Shown here one piece after another: positions 5,478 through 62,495 of a DNA stretch of 64,000 nt; position 1 is the first letter of the stretch, and each line of letters opens with the position of its first letter. Origin of the DNA: an uncultured bacterium (lineage in GTDB: Bacteria > Desulfobacterota > Deferrimicrobia > Deferrimicrobiales > Deferrimicrobiaceae); contig CAVUIA010000009.1 of NCBI GenBank assembly GCA_963741515.1, forward strand, positions 32,287 through 96,286, written 5' to 3'. The translations under genes and the position numbers were made by a program. The notes beneath the pieces are model-generated. The model was not told the origin of the DNA. It saw only the letters and a list, made by a program, of their open reading frames with translations, and ran no database searches.

Positions 5478-5831
5478 CCGCGGCAGCGGCCCGCCCCGGG
5501 CCGGCGGCGGCCGTTTCGGGCCTTTCCGCGGCGCCTCAGGCGTCGGCGTCTCCGGCGTCTCCTTTCGGGGTTCCGGCCTCCGGGGACGGTATTTTCGGCG
5601 CGGGTCCTCAGGCCGGGGAGGCGGCTTCACCTCGCCGGGCCCTCTTCGGACGACGGAGGGTTTCCCCCCGGTCTTATCGGATGGGTGCGTCGGTTTTTTA
5701 TCGCGCGGCGTCTTGATCGGATTTTCCTTTTTCCCGTTTTCGTTTGAACAAATATTCTACATCCGTTAGACTGTCCGGAAAATAGCGATTTGAAAAGTGA
5801 ATCGCGCCATACCCCACGCCGGAGGGCATCG

Positions 5832-6380
5832 ATGACCTACATCCCGCTCGCCATCCTCGTCGCCATCGTCGCCTGGTTCGTGGCCGCCTACAACAAGCTC
5901 GTCCGACTCCGCAACCAGATCAAGAACGCGTGGCACCAGATCGACGTGCAGCTCAAGAGGCGCCACGACCTCATCCCCAACCTGGTCGAGGTCGTGAAGG
6001 ATTACATGACCTACGAGCAGGAAACGCTGACGAAGGTCATCGAGGCGCGCGGCGCGGCGGTGGCCGCAAAGGGGCCGGCGGCCCAGGCGAAGGCGGAAAA
6101 CATCCTTACCGAATCGCTCAAGAGCCTCTTCGCCGTCGTCGAGAACTACCCGGACCTCAAGGCGAACCAGAACGTGGCCGCCCTCCAGGAGGAGCTGACC
6201 GGGACCGAGAACAAGATCTCCTTCGCGCGCCAGTTCTTCAACGACTCCGTGATGAGCTACAACAACACGATCCAGGCGATCCCCAGCAACATCGTCGCCT
6301 CCCTGTTCAACTTCGTCCAGGAGACCTACTTCCAGGCGGAGGAGACGGACCGGGCGGTCCCCAAGGCCGACCTCCGGTAA
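5832..6380 (+). CDS. lemA: LemA family protein
   Basis: YNKLV..NAWHQIDVQLKRRHDLIPNLV, ENYPDLKAN; GGAGG RBS. Confidence 0.95.
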   Translation: MTYIPLAILVAIVAWFVAAYNKLVRLRNQIKNAWHQIDVQLKRRHDLIPNLVEVVKDYMTYEQETLTKVIEARGAAVAAKGPAAQAKAENILTESLKSLFAVVENYPDLKANQNVAALQEELTGTENKISFARQFFNDSVMSYNNTIQAIPSNIVASLFNFVQETYFQAEETDRAVPKADLR

Positions 6381-6496: not shown

Positions 6497-6710
6497 CCTG
6501 TGACGCCTGCAGGAATGGCCGCAGCGGTCGCCCCGAGCGCGAGCCCTCCCCTGAGGGGGCGTGTCTTCCGAGCGGAGGCAGGGAGGCCGGGAGCGAGGAA
6601 GACCCGCAGCCGAAGTGAACCATGGATGGTGAACGAGGCGTCCCCGAACGGGGAGGGTCTCGTGCGAGGGCCGCGACCGTTGCGGCTCATCCGCACGCGG
6701 CCATGACAGG
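6497..6710 (+). repeat. Structured branched-hairpin element, copy A (putative ncRNA or MITE/REPIN-like)
   Basis: Nested inverted repeats gccgcagcggtcgc/gcgaccgttgcggc, ccctcccc/ggggaggg, gtcttcc/ggaagac; GGA-loop arms; homologous to 16730-16933 and 16092-16367. Confidence 0.75.
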
Positions 6711-6743
6711 CCGTTGGGCAATGCGGATGCGGAGGGGATCATC

Positions 6744-7862
6744 GTGACGCCACCGGGAAAACCCTGCCCGAAGTGCGGCACCGCGAATCCGCAGGGCGCG
6801 GACTACTGCTACCTGTGCCAGCATCCGCTCGCCCCCGGGACGCCGGGTGCCGGCGCGCAGGCGCTCGTCGGGAACGGCGGCGGGGCGCCCCCCGGGAGCG
6901 CCCCCGGCACGGCCCTGCGCACCGCCCCGATGCTCCTGTTCACCGACGCGGCGCGGCACAACGTCCGGCTGTCGGCTCTCCTCTTCGGGCTGCTCCTCGC
7001 GTTCTTCCTCCTCCTCGGGGCCGTCATCGGCGAAACGCACGGCGACGTCGGGAGGGGCCTCGGCCTCGCCGCGGTCCTGTACGCCATCCTCGCGGGGACC
7101 GCGTATTTCAGCGGCTCCAGCATCGTCCTGTCGCTCCACGACGCGAAGGAGGCCGACCCGGAGCGGCACCGGCAGCTCCTGAACGTGGTCGAGGAAATGA
7201 GGATCGCCGCCGGCCTCCCGATGCCGAAGGTCTACGTGATGGCGTCCGCCGGGATGAACGCCTTCGCCGCGGGGAGGAACCCGACGGAAGCGGGCGTCGC
7301 GGTCACGCAGGGGCTCCTCGACCGGCTCAACCGCGAGGAGCTGCAGGGAGTGATCGCCCACGAGCTGGCGCACGTCAAGGGGCGGGACACCCTCTACTAC
7401 ATCTGCGCCGCCGTGCTCGTCGGCGCCATCGCCCTGCTGGCCGACATGTTCCTGCGGGGGACCTTCCTCGGGTTCGGGCGACGGGCGCGCGTGTCCGGCG
7501 GTTCCCGCGGGGGCGACGGGCGCGGCAACGCGGCGTACCTCATCCTGGGGATCGTCCTCGCCCTGCTCGCGCCGCTGGCGGCGAAGATCCTGCAGATGAG
7601 CATCTCGCGGCAGCGGGAGTACCACGCCGACGCCGCCGCCGCGGGATTCACGCGCAACCCGCTGGGGCTCGCCTCCGCCCTCTCGAAGATCGCCGCGGGA
7701 GGGGGGCAGGTCCCGGGGGAGAACCGGGGGACGCAGCACCTGTTCATCGTCAACCCGTTACGGGACTTCGGGCCGGACGCCTCGGCCCTGATGTCGACGC
7801 ACCCCCCCACGGAACACCGCATCCGGCGGCTGCGCGCCATGGCCGGATTCGCCGAGTTATGA
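6744..7862 (+). CDS. htpX: HtpX-like M48 zinc metalloprotease with N-terminal zinc ribbon
   Basis: CPKC..CYLC ribbon, NAFAAG, HELAH, SRQREYHADA, STHPP; follows lemA. Confidence 0.9.
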   Translation: MTPPGKPCPKCGTANPQGADYCYLCQHPLAPGTPGAGAQALVGNGGGAPPGSAPGTALRTAPMLLFTDAARHNVRLSALLFGLLLAFFLLLGAVIGETHGDVGRGLGLAAVLYAILAGTAYFSGSSIVLSLHDAKEADPERHRQLLNVVEEMRIAAGLPMPKVYVMASAGMNAFAAGRNPTEAGVAVTQGLLDRLNREELQGVIAHELAHVKGRDTLYYICAAVLVGAIALLADMFLRGTFLGFGRRARVSGGSRGGDGRGNAAYLILGIVLALLAPLAAKILQMSISRQREYHADAAAAGFTRNPLGLASALSKIAAGGGQVPGENRGTQHLFIVNPLRDFGPDASALMSTHPPTEHRIRRLRAMAGFAEL

Positions 7863-13987: not shown

Positions 13988-15004
13988 CACCCCTCCCCCG
14001 CTATGCGTGCCAGCGCGTTTTCCGCGCCGGCAACCAGCTCTTCGAGAATCTCCCTTACGGGCTGAACCTTTTTGACGAAGGCCACGCTCTGGCCGGCCAT
14101 CAGCGACCCGTGCTCCACGTCCCCGTCGACCACCGCGCGCCGCAGCGCCCCGATCCAGAACTCCTCGAGCTTCACCATCGCCTCTTCGCGCGGAGATCGT
14201 CCCCGCCTTCAAATCGCTCAGCAGCGACAGCTGCAGGCGGTTGAAGTCCCGGGTCCCCTCGTTGACGATCGCCCGGACGGGGATCGTGGGGAGGGAAGGG
14301 TCGAACTGGGAAGTGGGCATGGCGTCCCGCGCGGCCGCCTTGACGAACGCTTCCTTGAACCGGGGGTGGGCCACGCACTCTTCGGCGGCGACGAACCGCG
14401 TCCCCAGCTGGACCCCCGAAGCCCCGAGGGACAGATAGTGCGCGATCATCTCCCCGGTCCCGATCCCGCCGGCGACGAAGACGGGAATCTCCGTGACGTT
14501 CAGCAGGAATTCCTGCGCGAGGACCGAGGTGGCCACCGGCCCGATGTGCCCGCCCGCCTCGTTCCCCTCGATCACCAGGGCGTCGATCCCCTGCTTGATC
14601 AGCCGCCTGGCAAGCGACAGGATCGGGGCGAAGCAGATCACCTTGAGCCCGGCGGCCTTCACCTCGGAGATGTCTTTCCCCGACGGGATGGTCCCCGCGA
14701 AGAAGACGAACGGGCATTTCTCACGGATCACCACCTCGATGTGGTCCTTGAACGCCGGGGCGACCGTGATGAGGTTGACGCCGAACGGTTTATCCGTCCT
14801 GGCCCGGGTATCCGCGATCTCCTTCGCGAGGAGTTCCGGCGGCATATTCCCGCCCGCGAGGACGCCGAACCCCCCCTCATTGGATATGGCGGACACGAGG
14901 GTGGACTCGGAAACCCAGGTCATCGCCCCGCACATGATCGCGTGTCGGGTCCCGAGGAAGTCGGTACCGCGCTTCCATGCCTTCGGCAGGCGCTTCAAAT
15001 CCAT
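13987..15004 (-). CDS. Nitronate monooxygenase/FabK-like flavoprotein, frameshifted near 14190
   Basis: KPFGVNL, EGNEAGGHIG, AGGIG, GVQLGTRF; GSLMAGQS in the second frame. Confidence 0.85.
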
Positions 15005-15126
15005 CGACACGCTCCGCGCGGGCTGTCTGGGGAACACTTTTTTATACCATACGACCGCCGGAAATTCCCCTCATTCCCCTTGGCGGCCGTTCGCGCGTTC
15101 TTCTGCTATCATTGGAAGTAACCGCC

Positions 15127-16096
15127 ATGGTCCGACAAAGCGAAATGTACGACATCACGGTCGTCGGCGCCGGCCCCGTTGGGCTTTATGCCACGTATTA
15201 CGCGGGGTTGCGGGAGTGCCGGACGAAGCTGATCGAGACCTACCCCCAGGTCGGCGGGCGGCTGATCTCGATGTACCCGGAAAAGGAGATCTTCGACGTC
15301 GCGGGGCACCGCAAGATCGTCGCCGCCGAACTCGTGCGCACGCTCTCCGCCCAGGCCATGCAGTACGATCCGACGGTCGTCCTCAACGAGCGGGTCGTGG
15401 ACTTGCGGATCCTCGGCGAGCGCGTTATCGAGCTCGACGACGCCCGAGGGGAGCCACTACACCCAGACCGTCATCATCGCCGCGGGCTGCGGGGCCTTCG
15501 TCCCGAGGAAGCTGGACGTCCCCGGCCTGATCGACTTCGAGGGGCACGGGATCTTCTATTTCCTCGGCTCCTTCGAGCCGCTGCGGGGGAAGAAGGTCCT
15601 GATCGTGGGCGGAGGGAACAGCGCGGTGGATTGGGCGCTGTCGCTCGACGGGATCGCGTCCGAGGTCACCCTCTGCCACCGGACGTACCGGTGGCAGGCC
15701 CACGAGGCGATGGTGCACCGCCTCCTCTCCTCGAACGTCCGCGTGAAATTCCCGTACTTCACCCTGAAGGATGTCCTGGGCGAGGACCGCGTTTCCGGCG
15801 CGGTCATCTGGAACGAGCGCAGCGGCCTCGAGGAGCGGATCGAGGTGGACGCGATCGTCCTCTCCATCGGGATGCTGACGAACATGGAGCCGTTCCGGCA
15901 GTGGGGGCTCAACATCGTCGGCAGCGGGATCGCCGTGGCCCCCGACATGTCCACCAACCTCCCCGGCGTGTACGCGGCGGGCGACATCGTGACGTACCCC
16001 GGCAAGGTCCTCCTCATCACCGCCGGCTCCGGCGAGGCGGCCACCGCGGTGAACGCGGCGAAGGAATACATCCTCTCGGGCGACCTCGGGCGGTAA
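15127..16096 (+). CDS. TrxB-fold ferredoxin-NADP+ reductase (YumC-like), frameshifted near 15450
   Basis: GAGPVGL, YPEKEIFDVAG, GGGNSAVDWA, GVYAAGDIVTYPGK. Confidence 0.85.
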
Positions 16097-16367
16097 CGGC
16101 GCAAGGGGCGCCCACCCCCTTCGAGAACCGCCCCTGATTCCGACCAATAGAGAGGTCTCCTGTTACGCGGCAGGGGTCCCTCGGAGCTACGGCTCCTCGA
16201 CCCTCCCTGGTCTCGTCGCCTGCGGCTGTTTCTCCCTCCGCCCTCCATGGCTCCCGGTTCGAAACAGACGCCGCTCCTCACGACCCCCCCCGCTTCACGG
16301 GAGACCTCTTCCATGTAAGCGTAGGAGCGGTTCTCTTCAGAACGAGCGCCCATTGCGCGCCGTTACC
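16092..16367 (-). repeat. Structured branched-hairpin element, copy C
   Basis: Inverted repeats ggtaacggcgc/gcgccgttacc, gagaaccgc/gcggttctc, agaggtctcc/ggagacctct; minus strand carries gccatggagggc and gaccagggagggtc arms joined by ccgca. Confidence 0.7.
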
Positions 16368-16400
16368 TGCCGGACGACCCTTGCGTCGACCCCCCAACCC

Positions 16401-16468
16401 CACAAGTCACCTCCACAGGCCACAGAGTCACAAGCCACCGCGACACAGGCCAACAGGACACAAGCCAC
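16401..16468. repeat. Short degenerate direct repeats CACAAG(C/T)CAC and CACAGGCCA
   Basis: cacaagtcac 16401, cacaagccac 16429 and 16459, each of the first two followed by cacaggcca. Confidence 0.7.
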
Positions 16469-16532
16469 GGGGAGAACTTCTCAACGAAAGGTACGTACGG
16501 AAAAGCTATCGATGTCAGGGTAGGCGGGTTCG

Positions 16533-16709
16533 GGGGACAGACTTCGATTTATCGATAAAGGGCGGAGGGGAAGTCTGTCCACCGCCCAGCACGGACACGA
16601 AAGCTAACGATATCGATAAAGGGCAGAGGGGAAGTCTGTCCCCCGCCCAGCACGGACACGACAGCTAACGATATCGATAACGGGAGGAAGGGGAAGAATG
16701 TCCCCCGCC
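16533..16709. repeat. 61-bp tandem repeat (about 2.6 copies) preceded by an inverted half-site
   Basis: atcgataa(a)ggg..ggggaagtctgtcc.ccgcccagcacggacacga.agctaacgat at 16551, 16612, 16673; ggggacagacttc is the inverted complement of gaagtctgtcccc. Confidence 0.85.
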
Positions 16710-16729
16710 AGGGAAGGTACGTCTGTCGA

Positions 16730-16933
16730 CGCCGTCGGCATCCCCAGCCGCAAGGGTCGCACCGAGCACGAATGCCTTCCCGCAGGGGGCGTGTTTTCCG
16801 AACGGAGCCAGGAGGGCGGGAGTGAGGAAAACCCGAAGCCGCAGCGAGCCAAGGAGGGCGAGCAAGGCGTCCCCGAGGGAAGGCATTCGTGCGAGGTCAG
16901 CGACCCTTGCGGTCAGCCGGGATGCCGGCGGCG
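16730..16933 (+). repeat. Structured branched-hairpin element, copy B
   Basis: cgccgtcggcatccc/gggatgccggcggcg, ccgcaagggtcgc/gcgacccttgcgg, gcacgaatgccttccc/gggaaggcattcgtgc, gttttcc/ggaaaac; GGA arms. Confidence 0.75.
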
Positions 16934-17641
16934 CCACGCCTCCCGCAGCGCCTGCGCCCGGTTGGAGAAGACGCCGACGGCGCCCGACTCGATCAGCCGG
17001 AAGGCGTCCGCGGGGTCGTCGACGGTGTAGGGCAGGAGCGGGAGCCCGGAAGCGAGGACATCCCGCAGCCGCACGGGCGTGAGCTGCCGGTGGTCGGGAT
17101 GGATCGACGAGAGGCCGTGCCGAATGCAGAACGCCAGGTCCGACGCCGACGGGCGGCGCGTCACCAGCCCGCACGGCACCGCGGGGAGAAGAGACCGGGC
17201 GGCAAGACACTCCTCCCTCAAGCCGGACGACAGCACCAGGGTCCCACCGTAGCCCGTTTCCGCGATCGTCCTCGCCGTCGCGGCGATGCCGCCGGGCGCC
17301 TTCGACTCGATGTTGAGCGGGACCGCGCCCCGAAGAAGGTCCAGGACCTCCGCGAGGGAGGGGATCGGCTCCCCGTTCTTCAGGCGGACCCGGCCCAGGC
17401 GCGCCCAGCGGGTGCGCGCCACGACGACGTTTTCCTTCGCCGTCCTCCCCGTGGCCTCGTCGTGGAAGACCGCCGGAACGCCGTCCGACGACAGCCGGAC
17501 ATCGAACTCGATCATGTCGGCCGCGTCGGCCGCCGCCAGGGCGAAGGCGGACGGGGAATTCTCGAGCGCCCGGTCCGACGCCCCGCGGTGGGCGACGAAG
17601 ACCGGGCGCCCCGCCGCCTCGATGGGCAAGGTGGAACGCAT
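16913..17641 (-). CDS. Glycerophosphodiester phosphodiesterase (GDPD)
   Basis: AHRGAS, ENS..AF, IEFDV, FHD, NIESK, YTVDD. Confidence 0.92.
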   Translation of the reverse strand: MRSTLPIEAAGRPVFVAHRGASDRALENSPSAFALAAADAADMIEFDVRLSSDGVPAVFHDEATGRTAKENVVVARTRWARLGRVRLKNGEPIPSLAEVLDLLRGAVPLNIESKAPGGIAATARTIAETGYGGTLVLSSGLREECLAARSLLPAVPCGLVTRRPSASDLAFCIRHGLSSIHPDHRQLTPVRLRDVLASGLPLLPYTVDDPADAFRLIESGAVGVFSNRAQALREAWRRRHPG

Positions 17642-17669
17642 GACGTAAAGTATCCTATAATCCTCCGTA

Positions 17670-18548
17670 ATGATCGATGTCATCTACAACCCGGTCGCGG
17701 GCCCCACGGCGGCGGGGCGGATCGAAAGGGTCCGCGCGTGCCTTGCGGCGAAGGCCGTCGATTTCCGGATCCTCCGGACGAAGGGGATCGGCGACGCCGA
17801 CATGATGGCCCGGGAAGCAGCGGCGAACGGGGCGACGGCGGTCGTGGTCGTCGGCGGCGACGGGACGATCCACGAGGCCGCCAACGGGCTGGCCGGCACG
17901 GGGACACCGCTTTTGATCGTCCCCGGAGGGACGGGGAACGTGTTCGCCAGGGAGCTCGACCTCCCCGACTCGGTGGAAGGGTGCCTCCACCTGTTGGACG
18001 AGGGGAAGACGATCTCCGTCCCCCTGGGGATGGCGAACGACCGGTATTTCGTCCTGCTGGGGTCCGCGGGCTTCGATGCCGAGGTCGTGGAACGGATGAA
18101 CCACCGGCAGAAGAACTACCTGGGGATCGCCGCCTACGTCCTTGTCGGCATCCGCCACTTCTTCCGGCCGCAGCCGCCGCTGTGGCTCGATCTTCCCGGA
18201 CGGGAACGGGTGGAGGCGCAGTCCGTGATCGTCGTCCGCGGAAAGAAGTACGGCGGAAACGTGACCATCGCACCCGCCGGGAACATCGAGGGGAACACCT
18301 TCCAGGCGGTCATCCTCACCCGCATGGGGAAATGGTCCATCGCCAAGTTCGTCTTCGACCTCCTGCTGGGAAGGCACACCCGCTCCCGCCATGTCACGAT
18401 CCGTGAAACCACGTCCGTCATGGTGCGCTCCAGCATCCCGTCCGCCGCGCAGGTGGACGGGGAATACCTCGGCCCCCTTCCCGTCCGGTTCACGATGAGC
18501 GACGTCTCCCTGCGGATCTTCGTGCCGAAGGAATTCCCATCGGTATAA
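17670..18548 (+). CDS. Diacylglycerol/lipid kinase family (YegS/DgkB-like)
   Basis: YNPVAG, VGGDGT, PGGTGNVFA, GFDA, QVDGE. Confidence 0.92.
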   Translation: MIDVIYNPVAGPTAAGRIERVRACLAAKAVDFRILRTKGIGDADMMAREAAANGATAVVVVGGDGTIHEAANGLAGTGTPLLIVPGGTGNVFARELDLPDSVEGCLHLLDEGKTISVPLGMANDRYFVLLGSAGFDAEVVERMNHRQKNYLGIAAYVLVGIRHFFRPQPPLWLDLPGRERVEAQSVIVVRGKKYGGNVTIAPAGNIEGNTFQAVILTRMGKWSIAKFVFDLLLGRHTRSRHVTIRETTSVMVRSSIPSAAQVDGEYLGPLPVRFTMSDVSLRIFVPKEFPSV

Positions 18549-61755: not shown

Positions 61756-62495
61756 CCACCGTGTAATCCCTGTCCCTGGAGAATACACGCTCCACGGAAA
61801 CCCCGTGCCATGCCGCTATGCGATTCAGGTGATCGGAAAATATCTGGTGGGGCCCCGTCACATCCGTCGGCAGGACTTCCCCGGATTCCGCCTGCCCGCA
61901 GACATCCCCCCGGGCGAGATCTTCGGCAGCTCCTTCGGGCGCGGCTTCCATGAATTCGCGATAGGTGCGAATCCATTCCGATCCCTCGGATGACCCGTGG
62001 AATTCCTCCCGCAGAAGTCCGGTATCCTGCCATTCGGGGGGTCCTCCCCGAACGATCCGCCTGTGACCCGTCCAGGGATAATCCGCCAAGGCATCGACCG
62101 AGGGTACGATTCCCGAACGCAGCGGATTGAGATGAATGTACCGCACGACCGTCCGGCAATACCCGACGTTCGACACGACCGGCGATTTATACCGGTTCTG
62201 GAACAGATGGCCGACCCGCTTGTGCCGCTCGATTGAAATAGCGTGAATACCCCGTCAGCAGGCAGTGCATGAACGACGGGAGACAACCTCTATCGCTTTG
62301 AACCAGCATGTGAAAATGGTTCGGCATGAGAGTCCACGCAGAGCACCGCACATCCCATTTCGCCAGGTTGACGCCCACCCTGCCGAGAAAATTGTCCCGA
62401 TCGAAATCATCGAGGTAGATATCGCGTTTTTCGATCCCGCGAGCATATACATGGTGCACCGCCCCCGGGAAATCGATCCGTGGTCCTCTTGGCAT
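61637..62495 (-). mobile_element. REP-associated tyrosine transposase (RAYT, Y1/HUH), frameshifted near 62230
   Basis: MPR.PR...PG..HHVYARG, LMPNHFH, GHLFQNRY, YIHLNP, YPWT; C-terminal HTH; lower GC. Confidence 0.88.

Follow-up and report, generated by a model that had tools for sequence, protein, structure and literature searches.

The 64,000-nt stretch of DNA analysed here (the window) carries three copies of a branched hairpin that belongs to a dispersed repeat of about 169 nt. We favor the reading, to which we give a probability of roughly 55%, that this element is a distant counterpart of the TwoAYGGAY motif that most likely acts as an RNA titrating or recruiting the regulator CsrA and that has multiplied in the manner of a non-autonomous mobile element. 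The reading is built on the observed structure of the element, its covariation, the strand that folds, the conserved loops, the number of copies, its genomic habits and its occurrence alongside csrA and fliW. From these features we infer that the element would be transcribed, bound by CsrA and spread in this way.

A branched hairpin dispersed through the genome

In each copy of the element, a long basal stem that contains tandem G·A pairs opens at a three-way junction into two arms, both capped by C-ANGGAN-G loops. The sequence-only reading had described three such hairpins, and we recovered all of them at their reported positions with the arm caps and stems it had quoted. The core of copy A lies at 6517-6686 on the + strand (174 bits with covariance model R1; contig C9:38803-38972), with arm loops at 6577-6588 (ggc-agggag-gcc) and 6619-6630 (acc-atggat-ggt). 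It sits between two co-directional genes identified with Pfam, one for LemA (5790-6380) and one for an M48 peptidase (start at about 6714-6746), so read-through would transcribe this copy in the folding sense. Copy B has its core at 16746-16912 on the + strand (172.8 bits; C9:49032-49199) and its loops at 16807-16817 (gcc-aggag-ggc) and 16848-16859 (gcc-aaggag-ggc). The core of copy C occupies 16146-16314 on the - strand (109 bits; C9:48432-48601) and was also found through blastn subfamily matches. It represents a C subtype with about seven copies in the genome, and its arm loops, in + strand reading, are gccctccatggc at 16240-16251 and gaccctccctggtc at 16199-16212.

Copies B and C stand back to back against the stop codons of two convergent genes, as had been noted. 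One is the taa (16094-16096, + strand) of a pyridine nucleotide-disulphide oxidoreductase gene, and the other is the stop codon (16913-16915, - strand; tca on the + strand) of a glycerophosphodiester phosphodiesterase (GDPD) gene at 16913-17683, which directly follows the last base of the copy B core. The oxidoreductase gene has an apparent frameshift upstream of its stop codon. The wider ranges given in the sequence-only reading comprise the conserved cores and locus-specific outer stems. For copy C, the range 16092-16367 (- strand) encloses the core in diverged arms that derive from an older family member. This outer shell begins 2 bases ahead of the oxidoreductase stop codon, the two flanks of the core base-pair, and the outer arms resemble those of the A and B type. 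The left flank of copy B (16730-16745, + strand) is an inverted copy of the last GDPD coding bases (16916-16933) and lengthens the closing stem past the conserved element (complementarity score 25, control 99th percentile 18). We folded the wider ranges of all three copies, and none of 200 shuffles was as good in any case (copy A, 6497-6710, z = -7.0; copy B, 16730-16933, z = -11.7; copy C, 16092-16367, -166.7 kcal/mol, z = -9.6).

That these hairpins form a family was confirmed in the 2.8-Mb genome, where nhmmer gave 67 matches (39 full-length and 28 partial) and covariance model R1 gave 53. An inverted repeat forms the two ends of the element (CCGCAAGGGGCGC…GCGCCCCTTGCGG). Of 33 intergenic full copies in this genome, 26 have their 3′ side against the stop codon of a convergent gene, 14 of these at a distance of 12 nt or less, and partial copies show the same placement in 21 of 27 cases; copies from other genera follow the rule only weakly (30 of 50). 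Because those 26 copies point into the 3′ end of the convergent gene, the message of that gene would carry the reverse complement and not the folding strand. Neighboring copies within 2 kb of each other are divergent in 10 of 15 pairs, tandem in five and convergent in none. Judged by eye, there is no replication-strand bias, as orientations alternate without a switch point along the 1.14-Mb contig.

The element is commonly part of a larger unit. In this genus, the usual order is a conserved module of about 75 nt (module M), a short-repeat array and then the element. At copy C, module M (…CCTGACATCGATAGCTTTTCCGTACGTACCTTTCG…GAGAAGTTCTC…) lies at 16457-16531 on the - strand, and a GTGGCYTGTG-type array (CACARGCCAC on the + strand) follows at 16398-16469 on the - strand, 5′ of the element, with TRF periods of 7 and 15 at 16413-16468. 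Module M has 46 copies in the genome; 38 have a same-strand element downstream within 700 nt, and the module is found 36-229 nt upstream of 26 of the 39 full elements. Per 150 nt, this genome has 2.02 occurrences of the array motif upstream of its element copies, 0.06 downstream and 0.04 in random intergenic DNA, and no such arrays were detected upstream of 57 element copies from other genera. Another dispersed module of this intergenic mosaic, located upstream of module M at many loci, is a 61-nt repeat that forms 2.6 tandem units at 16550-16709 (90% matches, score 262). In each unit, GGGGACAGACTTC…GAAGTCTGTCCCC forms a hairpin around an ATCGAT-rich loop.

A sigma-70 scan of 16050-16960 returned no promoter-like sites. 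Sigma-28-type sites of this genome read TAAAG-N16-CCGATAA, with 10 intergenic matches, eight of them 9-161 nt before genes that include flagellin. We considered module M as a sigma-28 promoter, and its GAAAG-N15-TCGATAG deviates at the best-kept letters and in spacing, so we do not claim a promoter. Of 24 sequencing runs, two were RNA, each with 5% of the sampled words, and these covered conserved coding parts only, with nothing in 16097-17232; they are uninformative on transcription.

Pairing, folding strand and loops

The stems of the element change in sequence and keep their pairing. Among 35 copies of this genome, double changes occur at 31 of 45 predicted pairs, which bears out the compensatory mutations first noticed in the three window copies. 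In 67 copies from six genera, aligned by fitting them to the structure of the model, double changes are seen at 43 of the 45 pairs. Paired cells make up 92.1% of this model-fitted alignment, compared with 65.3% in shuffles and 36-44% in slid controls, and none of 500 shuffles reached the observed value.

The proposed strand bias was likewise found. G·T pairs outnumber A·C pairs by 91 to 24 in relatives and more weakly in this genome (37 to 28), which indicates that the GGA strand is the folded strand. Mismatches in relatives are purine-purine in 172 cases and pyrimidine-pyrimidine in 28, and RNAalifold scored the forward strand at -37.7 and its reverse complement at -17.7. The bias is no proof of RNA, since single-stranded DNA that folds can likewise accommodate G·T and G·A pairs. 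In the basal stem (CCGAGC…GCGAGG), 5′-GA-3′ stands opposite 5′-GA-3′ in nearly all copies, and similar GA/GA steps adjoin the arm stems.

The RNA-binding regulator CsrA/RsmA recognizes a hexaloop A-N-G-G-A-N with a closing C-G pair, and one CsrA dimer tolerates spaced GGA sites and can hold two. Both arm loops of the element nearly always read CA[G/U/A]GGA[U/G/C]G in the 35 copies of this genome and the 67 related copies. Arm-2 loops lacking GGA were found once in each set (CATGCGATG in this genome, CATGAATG in relatives), and some arm-1 rows contain insertions that leave GGA in place. Each of the element's twin arms displays a C-ANGGAN-G loop, and the two loops are separated by about 40-50 nt, as they could be in a CsrA decoy or target. 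A genome-wide count of 4-bp hairpins with ANGGAN loops (503, compared with 178-489 for control loops) is uninformative because the 3-bp tip stems of the element mostly fall short of four pairs.

In the mechanism we propose, the GGA strand would fold into the branched form described above, with tandem G·A pairs of the sheared type in its basal stem, and any transcribed copy would present a single CsrA dimer with two sites simultaneously. The roughly 40 copies acting jointly, or single copies acting in cis on neighboring messages, would titrate or recruit CsrA in flagellated bacteria in which this regulator is partnered by FliW. The element itself would have spread like a non-autonomous mobile element, in this genus inserting immediately after stop codons and into older hairpins at their tips.

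Relation to TwoAYGGAY and other repeat families

The sequence-only reading could not assign the hairpins to a named family. No Rfam model detects the copies, yet a closest named relative exists in TwoAYGGAY (RF01731). An Rfam scan of the window at the gathering threshold gave no match, and RF01731 run on 16000-17000 and on the 111-nt apex of copy B gave nothing at E values up to 10. Searching the whole genome with RF01731 produced four matches of 17.4 bits, none at the copies and all below the gathering score of 43 bits. The same model gave no matches in 41 relatives, which is a weak negative as control genomes were also silent. Lax Rfam matches to mir-9279 (24 bits) and to isrD and others (about 10 bits) were rejected as chance. 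A 40-letter degenerate pattern had no match in a contig collection that may leave out the records of this genome.

The TwoAYGGAY motif comes from the work of Weinberg et al. 2010 (PMC2864571). According to its main text, a later report presents an extended, multi-copy form in Pseudomonadota as a proposed Csr/Rsm binder (10.64898/2026.09.22.753630). A twin-arm architecture like that of TwoAYGGAY is present in all full copies of our element, with loops of the broader form A-N-GGA-N, and both have tandem G·A pairs in their stems, as the section on such motifs has it (PMC4333381). The element also shares features with the extended form as the main text describes it: an elongated basal stem, tens of copies per genome with big differences between relatives, a predominance of divergent orientation among neighboring copies (68.4% in Pseudomonas, compared with 10 of 15 pairs in this genome), 5′-side arrays of short G/C/T-rich repeats in fixed orientation (here in this genome only) and association with other palindromic repeats (10.64898/2026.09.22.753630).

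There are also differences. At the second loop position, G or A frequently takes the place of Y. Strict AYGGAY, with Y at both positions, accounts for none of 35 arm-1 and six of 35 arm-2 loops in this genome and for about 15 of 67 arm-1 and 30 of 67 arm-2 loops in relatives, the remaining loops deviating at position 2 (G or A) or at position 6 (G). The arms are longer and contain internal purine-rich loops, the host lineage is another one (Candidatus Deferrimicrobiaceae/Deltaproteobacteria), and the host CsrA is FliW-paired in a flagellar locus. Placement against stop codons and the conserved 75-nt upstream module further set the element apart in this genus. Our comparison, made for the extended forms with their main-text description, suggests that the element is a distant variant resembling TwoAYGGAY.

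We compared the element to other known systems. The sRNA genes of CsrB, CsrC and RsmX/Y/Z exist in one or a few copies, have known promoters and terminators and contain numerous GGA sites apiece, whereas the element has two sites per copy in tens of dispersed copies; Rfam scans found no similarity to these decoys in sequence or model. The likeness lies in the GGA of the hairpin loops and in a presumed competition with messages for CsrA/RsmA dimers, following what is said there of these decoy RNAs of Gammaproteobacteria (PMC4333381). REP, REPIN and BIME sequences resemble the element as dispersed extragenic palindromes that often lie behind genes and between convergent genes, nest, form mosaics with short modules and make no target duplication. 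REPs, however, are simple hairpins of 20-40 nt without conserved branched tips and normally occur with a RAYT gene; for our element a Y1-type gene does not track its presence, and this genome has only a 22.3-bit Y1-type fragment. Integron attC sites were set aside by eye, as the element ends are unlike the RYYYAAC/GTTRRRY cores.

Co-occurrence with csrA-fliW and alternative readings

The element was found in 28 of 70 genomes of the family Candidatus Deferrimicrobiaceae, and csrA and fliW were found together in the same 16 of these 70. At least five element matches occur in 15 of the 16 csrA-fliW genomes and in three of the 54 others, 41 of which have none. Copy number swings widely between close relatives, from 0 to at least 40 inside one genus; it reaches about 40 with csrA-fliW and can fall to zero in congeners that have lost the pair. 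Near-complete genomes without csrA, such as G019 (100% complete, 10 contigs), G043 (1 contig) and G052 (6 contigs), contain 0-2 copies, and csrA-bearing congeners of csrA-less genomes contain 37-40. Exceptions are G020 (13 copies, 96% complete) and G051 (10 copies, 94% complete), in which no csrA was found, and G002, which has csrA and 0-1 copies. CsrA-bearing genomes outside the family gave no match to the element model. On an RpoB tree of 44 genomes, seven independent pairs differ in csrA, and the element differs in the same direction in four to six of them, in the opposite direction in none and not at all in one to three. The corresponding tree-controlled sign test is borderline (median p 0.0625, range 0.03-0.125) and uses a single-gene tree with many unresolved forks.

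The host CsrA is FliW-partnered and encoded in the flagellar locus. In this assembly csrA is split by a frameshift, which is likely an assembly error because rpoB and a gene of the window are split too. The flagellin leader contains the same 8-mers as the element loops, together with a sigma-28-type promoter, a CGGGC-AGGGAC-GCCCG hairpin and the Shine-Dalgarno region CAGGGAGG. Because csrA travels with fliW and flagellar genes, CsrA is not singled out as the partner, and co-occurrence cannot separate it from another flagellum-linked factor. The co-occurrence with csrA is what is new about the element. The earlier proposal of a dispersed CsrA-binding module is strengthened by near-invariant C-ANGGAN-G loops, constraint on the GGA strand and a copy number that tracks csrA-fliW in 70 genomes.

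The other earlier proposal, a non-autonomous mobile element recognized by an HUH enzyme, survives only loosely. Many copies, copy-number swings and nesting agree with mobility, and the HUH/RAYT part fails: the one Y1-type match in this genome, a fragment of 20.8-22.3 bits, lies below the cut-off of 23, and among 25 genomes compared, Y1/RAYT-type genes above cut-off occur in four of nine element-rich and 10 of 16 element-poor or element-free genomes. One could suppose that the element is nothing but a selfish mobile hairpin of the REPIN, MITE or attC-like kind, whose recombinase recognizes a folded single DNA strand including its loops. Its likeness to CsrA sites and its link to csrA would then be by-products of shared ancestry or of an enzyme travelling with flagellar genes. 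High and widely varying copy number (0 to at least 40 within one genus) fits this idea, as do paired flanks in 15 of 35 copies (about two expected) from nesting inside older copies and other palindromes, a 415-nt relative that has only the terminal arms in common, and the tight, oriented placement behind stop codons in this genome; the strand bias fits folded DNA equally with RNA. No flanking direct repeat was present at any of 35 copies, and none exceeded the control 95th percentile, which also agrees with a selfish hairpin, though terminal inverted repeats without target-site duplication do not make a MITE. We nevertheless consider it unlikely, because no partner enzyme was found, the exact CsrA-type hexaloop is kept across six genera while the stems drift, and the csrA-fliW association recurs in several independent contrasts.

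The REP/BIME elements of enterobacteria serve as terminators or messenger stabilizers. A similar 3′-end role for the neighboring gene, possibly with the C-rich array as a Rho entry site, would suit the stop-codon placement in this genome (26 of 33 full and 21 of 27 partial copies), the C-rich, G-poor array beyond the hairpin on that gene's strand and the other long hairpins at the same place in orthologous intergenic regions of other species, but is improbable: the pairing-constrained strand is antisense to the gene, a terminator needs neither two conserved GGA loops nor tandem G·A pairs, the stem has no following U-tract, the placement rule is weak in other genera (30 of 50), where the arrays are not found, and the csrA link is left unexplained.

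For the preferred reading, in which a TwoAYGGAY-like RNA titrates or recruits CsrA, this lineage provides a natural experiment, with close relatives that have or lack csrA-fliW and carry about 40 copies or none. TwoAYGGAY elements occur widely and in large numbers, and their putative binding of CsrA has so far been proposed from loop sequence alone. Our results supply comparative evidence for a functional tie of the element to csrA-fliW. More tentatively, and with a modest chance of being right, the mobile, self-multiplying RNA module may serve, dispersed as it is, to sequester or recruit a flagellum-linked CsrA that is partnered by FliW, or may depend on that CsrA, in a lineage distant from the Gammaproteobacteria, the group with known Csr decoy RNAs. 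In that case, the entire TwoAYGGAY class would be CsrA-coupled mobile RNA that links regulation and mobility. We know of no RNA antagonist for FliW-type CsrA systems, and if CsrA binds the element, RNA decoys would be extended to these systems.

A dispersed family of structured twin-loop elements

The sequence-only reading described three hairpins of shared architecture in the window. We found them at 6497-6710 (+ strand, copy A), 16730-16933 (+ strand, copy B), and 16092-16367 (- strand, copy C), with the arm caps and stem variants that it reported. Energy calculations folded each copy into a long imperfect stem with two arms at its tip, giving -133.5 kcal/mol for A (z -7.0), -141.3 kcal/mol for B (z -11.7), and -166.7 kcal/mol for C (z -9.6); none of 200 shuffles per copy folded as well. 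Mean column identity in the three-way alignment is 65%. B and C form one divergent pair, 430 bp apart.

The proposal that these hairpins belong to a dispersed family was borne out. Iterated nhmmer searches (E <= 0.001) of the genome assembly (2.79 Mb, 65% G+C, 11 contigs) returned 67 matches, 39 of them full-length (model start <= 14, end >= 158) and 28 partial. Four of the 39 full copies were set aside before alignment: two interrupted by long insertions, one whose tip is deleted, and one of very divergent sequence. The covariance model made from the 35 aligned copies, R1, gave 53 matches in the genome. The conserved core of the element spans ~169 nt, from CCGCAAGGGGCGC to GCGCCCCTTGCGG, and the longer closing stems noted from the sequence are locus-specific extensions beyond it. 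Two subtypes were apparent, an A/B type that forms the majority and a C type with about 7 copies.

RNAalifold predicted 45 pairs from the 35 copies, 31 of which show compensatory double changes. Inside the outer stem comes a second stem, interrupted by a tandem 5'-GA/5'-GA mismatch (CCGAGC…GCGAGG). Next is a short helix rich in G, which closes a three-way junction that carries the two arms. Fitting 52 loci from related genomes to the model, with overlapping and near-identical same-genus loci omitted, yielded 67 copies from six genera. Standard pairs occupy 92.1% of cells in these copies, compared to 65.3 ± 0.6% in column shuffles (0 of 500 reached the observed value) and 36-44% in a slid-partner control. 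Double changes occur in 43 of the 45 pairs, and the covariation score is 0.574 versus 0.147, a margin that is still very large for an alignment fitted to the model and composed of mutually related copies. Pairing is thus kept while the stems change sequence, as first suggested from three copies.

The relatives' stems contain 91 G·T or T·G pairs versus 24 A·C or C·A, and their mismatches are purine-purine in 172 cases versus pyrimidine-pyrimidine in 28. The wobble bias is weaker inside the genome itself (37 versus 28). The strand with GGA in both arm loops has a consensus energy of -37.7, and its complement one of -17.7. Because wobbles, mismatches, and energy all favor the GGA strand, the constrained strand is the one chosen in the sequence-only reading. 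Such a bias is as compatible with a folded single strand of DNA as with an RNA.

In almost all copies the tip of each arm reads C-A-N-G-G-A-N-G, the CsrA/RsmA hexaloop consensus. The commonest loop forms are CAGGGAGG, CAGGGATG, CATGGATG, and CATGGACG. GGA is absent from the arm-2 loop in one of the 35 copies of this genome (CATGCGATG) and one of the 67 from relatives (CATGAATG); some arm-1 rows carry insertions and retain GGA.

Genomic setting

Gene positions were assigned with a home-made gene caller, whose calls for five window genes were compared with Pfam. Of 33 intergenic full copies, 26 have a convergent gene whose 3' end is opposite the 3' side of the folding strand, and in 14 of these the stop codon is no more than 12 nt away; 21 of 27 partial copies are placed likewise. 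In other genera 30 of 50 copies are so placed, a proportion that does not differ clearly from chance. Many of the partial copies represent right arms that remain where a new unit replaced an older copy's tip. Flanks pair with each other in 15 of 35 copies (~2 expected), and direct flanking repeats were found in none of the 35. The left flank of B (16730-16745) repeats, in inverted orientation, the end of the coding sequence of the adjoining glycerophosphodiester phosphodiesterase gene (16916-16933; 15 of 17 letters), and two paralogous genes (C5:9000 and C2:10441) likewise have an inverted copy of their 3' coding end on the far side of an element.

Fifteen pairs of neighboring copies have their members within 2 kb; 10 are divergent, 5 tandem, and none convergent. 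The density of short GGCYYTGKG-type repeats, per 150 nt, is 2.02 on the 5' side of the element, 0.06 on the 3' side, and 0.04 in random intergenic DNA. In other genera, 57 copies showed no such arrays upstream. Farther upstream than the array is a conserved ~75-nt stretch, module M, which weakly resembles a sigma-28 site. An element follows on the same strand in 38 of the 46 M copies in the genome, and M lies 36-229 nt upstream of 26 of the 39 full elements. A 61-nt tandem repeat (window 16550-16709; 2.6 units), whose units are GGGGACAGACTTC…GAAGTCTGTCCCC hairpins around a loop rich in ATCGAT, lies 5' of module M at many loci of the element in the genome and is also present in another species' orthologous region.

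A ~415-nt long hairpin has only the two terminal arms of the twin-loop element (left, ~35 nt; right, ~55 nt) in common with it; the hairpin's ~330-nt interior differs. It occurs at C2:1126432-1126845 and 1127161-1127595 (locus L135), with four further copies on contigs C1 and C2, and has no Rfam match. In other species the orthologous intergenic region is occupied by an A/B-type copy, by part of this 415-nt relative, or by unrelated long hairpins. At loci L057 and L063, which represent this region, two species have an unrelated long hairpin of ~95 nt between the same convergent genes, in opposite orientation in the two and with an insertion in one.

The alternative offered from the sequence was a non-autonomous mobile element read by structure, to be checked for co-occurrence with RAYT/TnpA genes; the presence of a Y1/RAYT-type gene did not follow that of the element. 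Weak Y1_Tnp matches (29-42 bits) were found in 13 of 24 related genomes, in single-copy frames of 300-430 aa. The window itself contains a 102-aa open frame (62187-62495, - strand) with an IS200-like/RAYT-like Y1_Tnp match of 22.3 bits, just below the cut-off.

Known RNA classes and the distribution of csrA

No Rfam family matches the element at gathering or lax thresholds. The element is like TwoAYGGAY in architecture and habit, although the model for that class (RF01731) does not detect its copies: four matches of 17.4 bits in the whole genome all lie away from the element, and 41 relatives gave none, a weak negative in that control genomes gave none in the same search either. TwoAYGGAY is described as matching a CsrA-binding motif strongly in both loops and as having a stem with two tandem G·A pairs, and CsrA-binding sRNAs were proposed (PMC4333381). 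According to a preprint, TwoAYGGAY elements of Pseudomonadota have a lengthened basal stem, number 11-23 per genome in the median (up to 202), form doublets that are 68.4% divergent (median 249 bp), carry oriented 5'-side arrays of 5-6-nt GMTBT(T) repeats, and are associated with arrays of REPs; both sponging of Csr/Rsm and mobile-like expansion are suggested there, and neither is settled (10.64898/2026.09.22.753630). Divergent doublets and 5' short-repeat arrays are common to these and to the element of this genome, which is best classed with TwoAYGGAY, as a distant and unmodelled variant.

The closest public relatives are titled Candidatus Deferrimicrobium and Candidatus Deferrimicrobiaceae, and the name has been linked to candidate phylum MBNT15. 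R1 matched 14 of 24 other family genomes; the 16 genomes searched in the same class and phylum but outside this family gave no match. csrA (PF02599) and fliW (PF02623) are present in the same 16 of 70 family genomes. Elements were counted in the 70 at E <= 1e-4, with no more than 40 candidates scored in each, and the 16 csrA-positive genomes gave at least 40, 12, 36, 9, 0, 16, 7, at least 40, 39, 37, 39, 5, 18, 12, 5, and 15. Among the 54 csrA-less genomes, 41 had no match, 10 had 1-4, and three had more (G051, 10; G020, 13; G077, 57% complete, 18); the well-assembled G019, G043, G052, G010, and G073 had 0-2. The element co-occurs with csrA, with at least 5 matches in 15 of 16 csrA-positive versus 3 of 54 csrA-less genomes.

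We placed csrA on an RpoB tree that covers an outgroup and 44 of the 70 genomes: all genus g2 genomes in which rpoB was matched, and 17 genomes representing other genera. G017 gave no rpoB match, and this genome was omitted because its rpoB lies in five pieces (contig C1). csrA changed at least 8 times. In seven independent pairs that differ in csrA, the element (at least 5 copies) differed in the same way in 4-6, in the opposite way in none, and not at all in 1-3 (median p 0.0625, range 0.031-0.125). The association is consistent in direction and low in power, and the co-occurrence data cannot separate a role of csrA from fliW and flagellar genes. csrA of this genome is in two pieces (contig C4), and a pyridine nucleotide-disulphide oxidoreductase gene in the window (14977-16137 and 15605-16096, + strand) is split over two frames, one with the N-terminal NAD-binding part and the other with the C-terminal Pyr_redox_2 part. 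Since this gene, rpoB, and csrA are all split, the assembly probably carries indel errors.

A flagellin leader and a proposed role of the element

CsrA controls the flagellin message in Bacillus and Campylobacter. At locus L202 (C4:68794-68980), the flagellin gene of this genome has a textbook sigma-28-type promoter, TAAAG-N16-CCGATAA; other TAAA-N15-17-CGATAA sites lie 9-86 nt before genes in seven cases and 519 nt from the nearest gene in one. Its leader contains a CGGGC-AGGGAC-GCCCG hairpin (AGGGAC hexaloop) 12 nt before a CAGGGAGG Shine-Dalgarno region, and leader 8-mers are identical to loop 8-mers of the element. The hairpin and the Shine-Dalgarno region look like a candidate pair of CsrA sites, and these features fit a CsrA-controlled flagellin message.

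The RNA runs were without cover of the intergenic region. The element is real and well structured. Its most likely mode of action is that of a transcribed twin-loop RNA that would hold one CsrA dimer and would be carried by a mobile-like repeat unit, with binding, transcription, and means of spread all putative.
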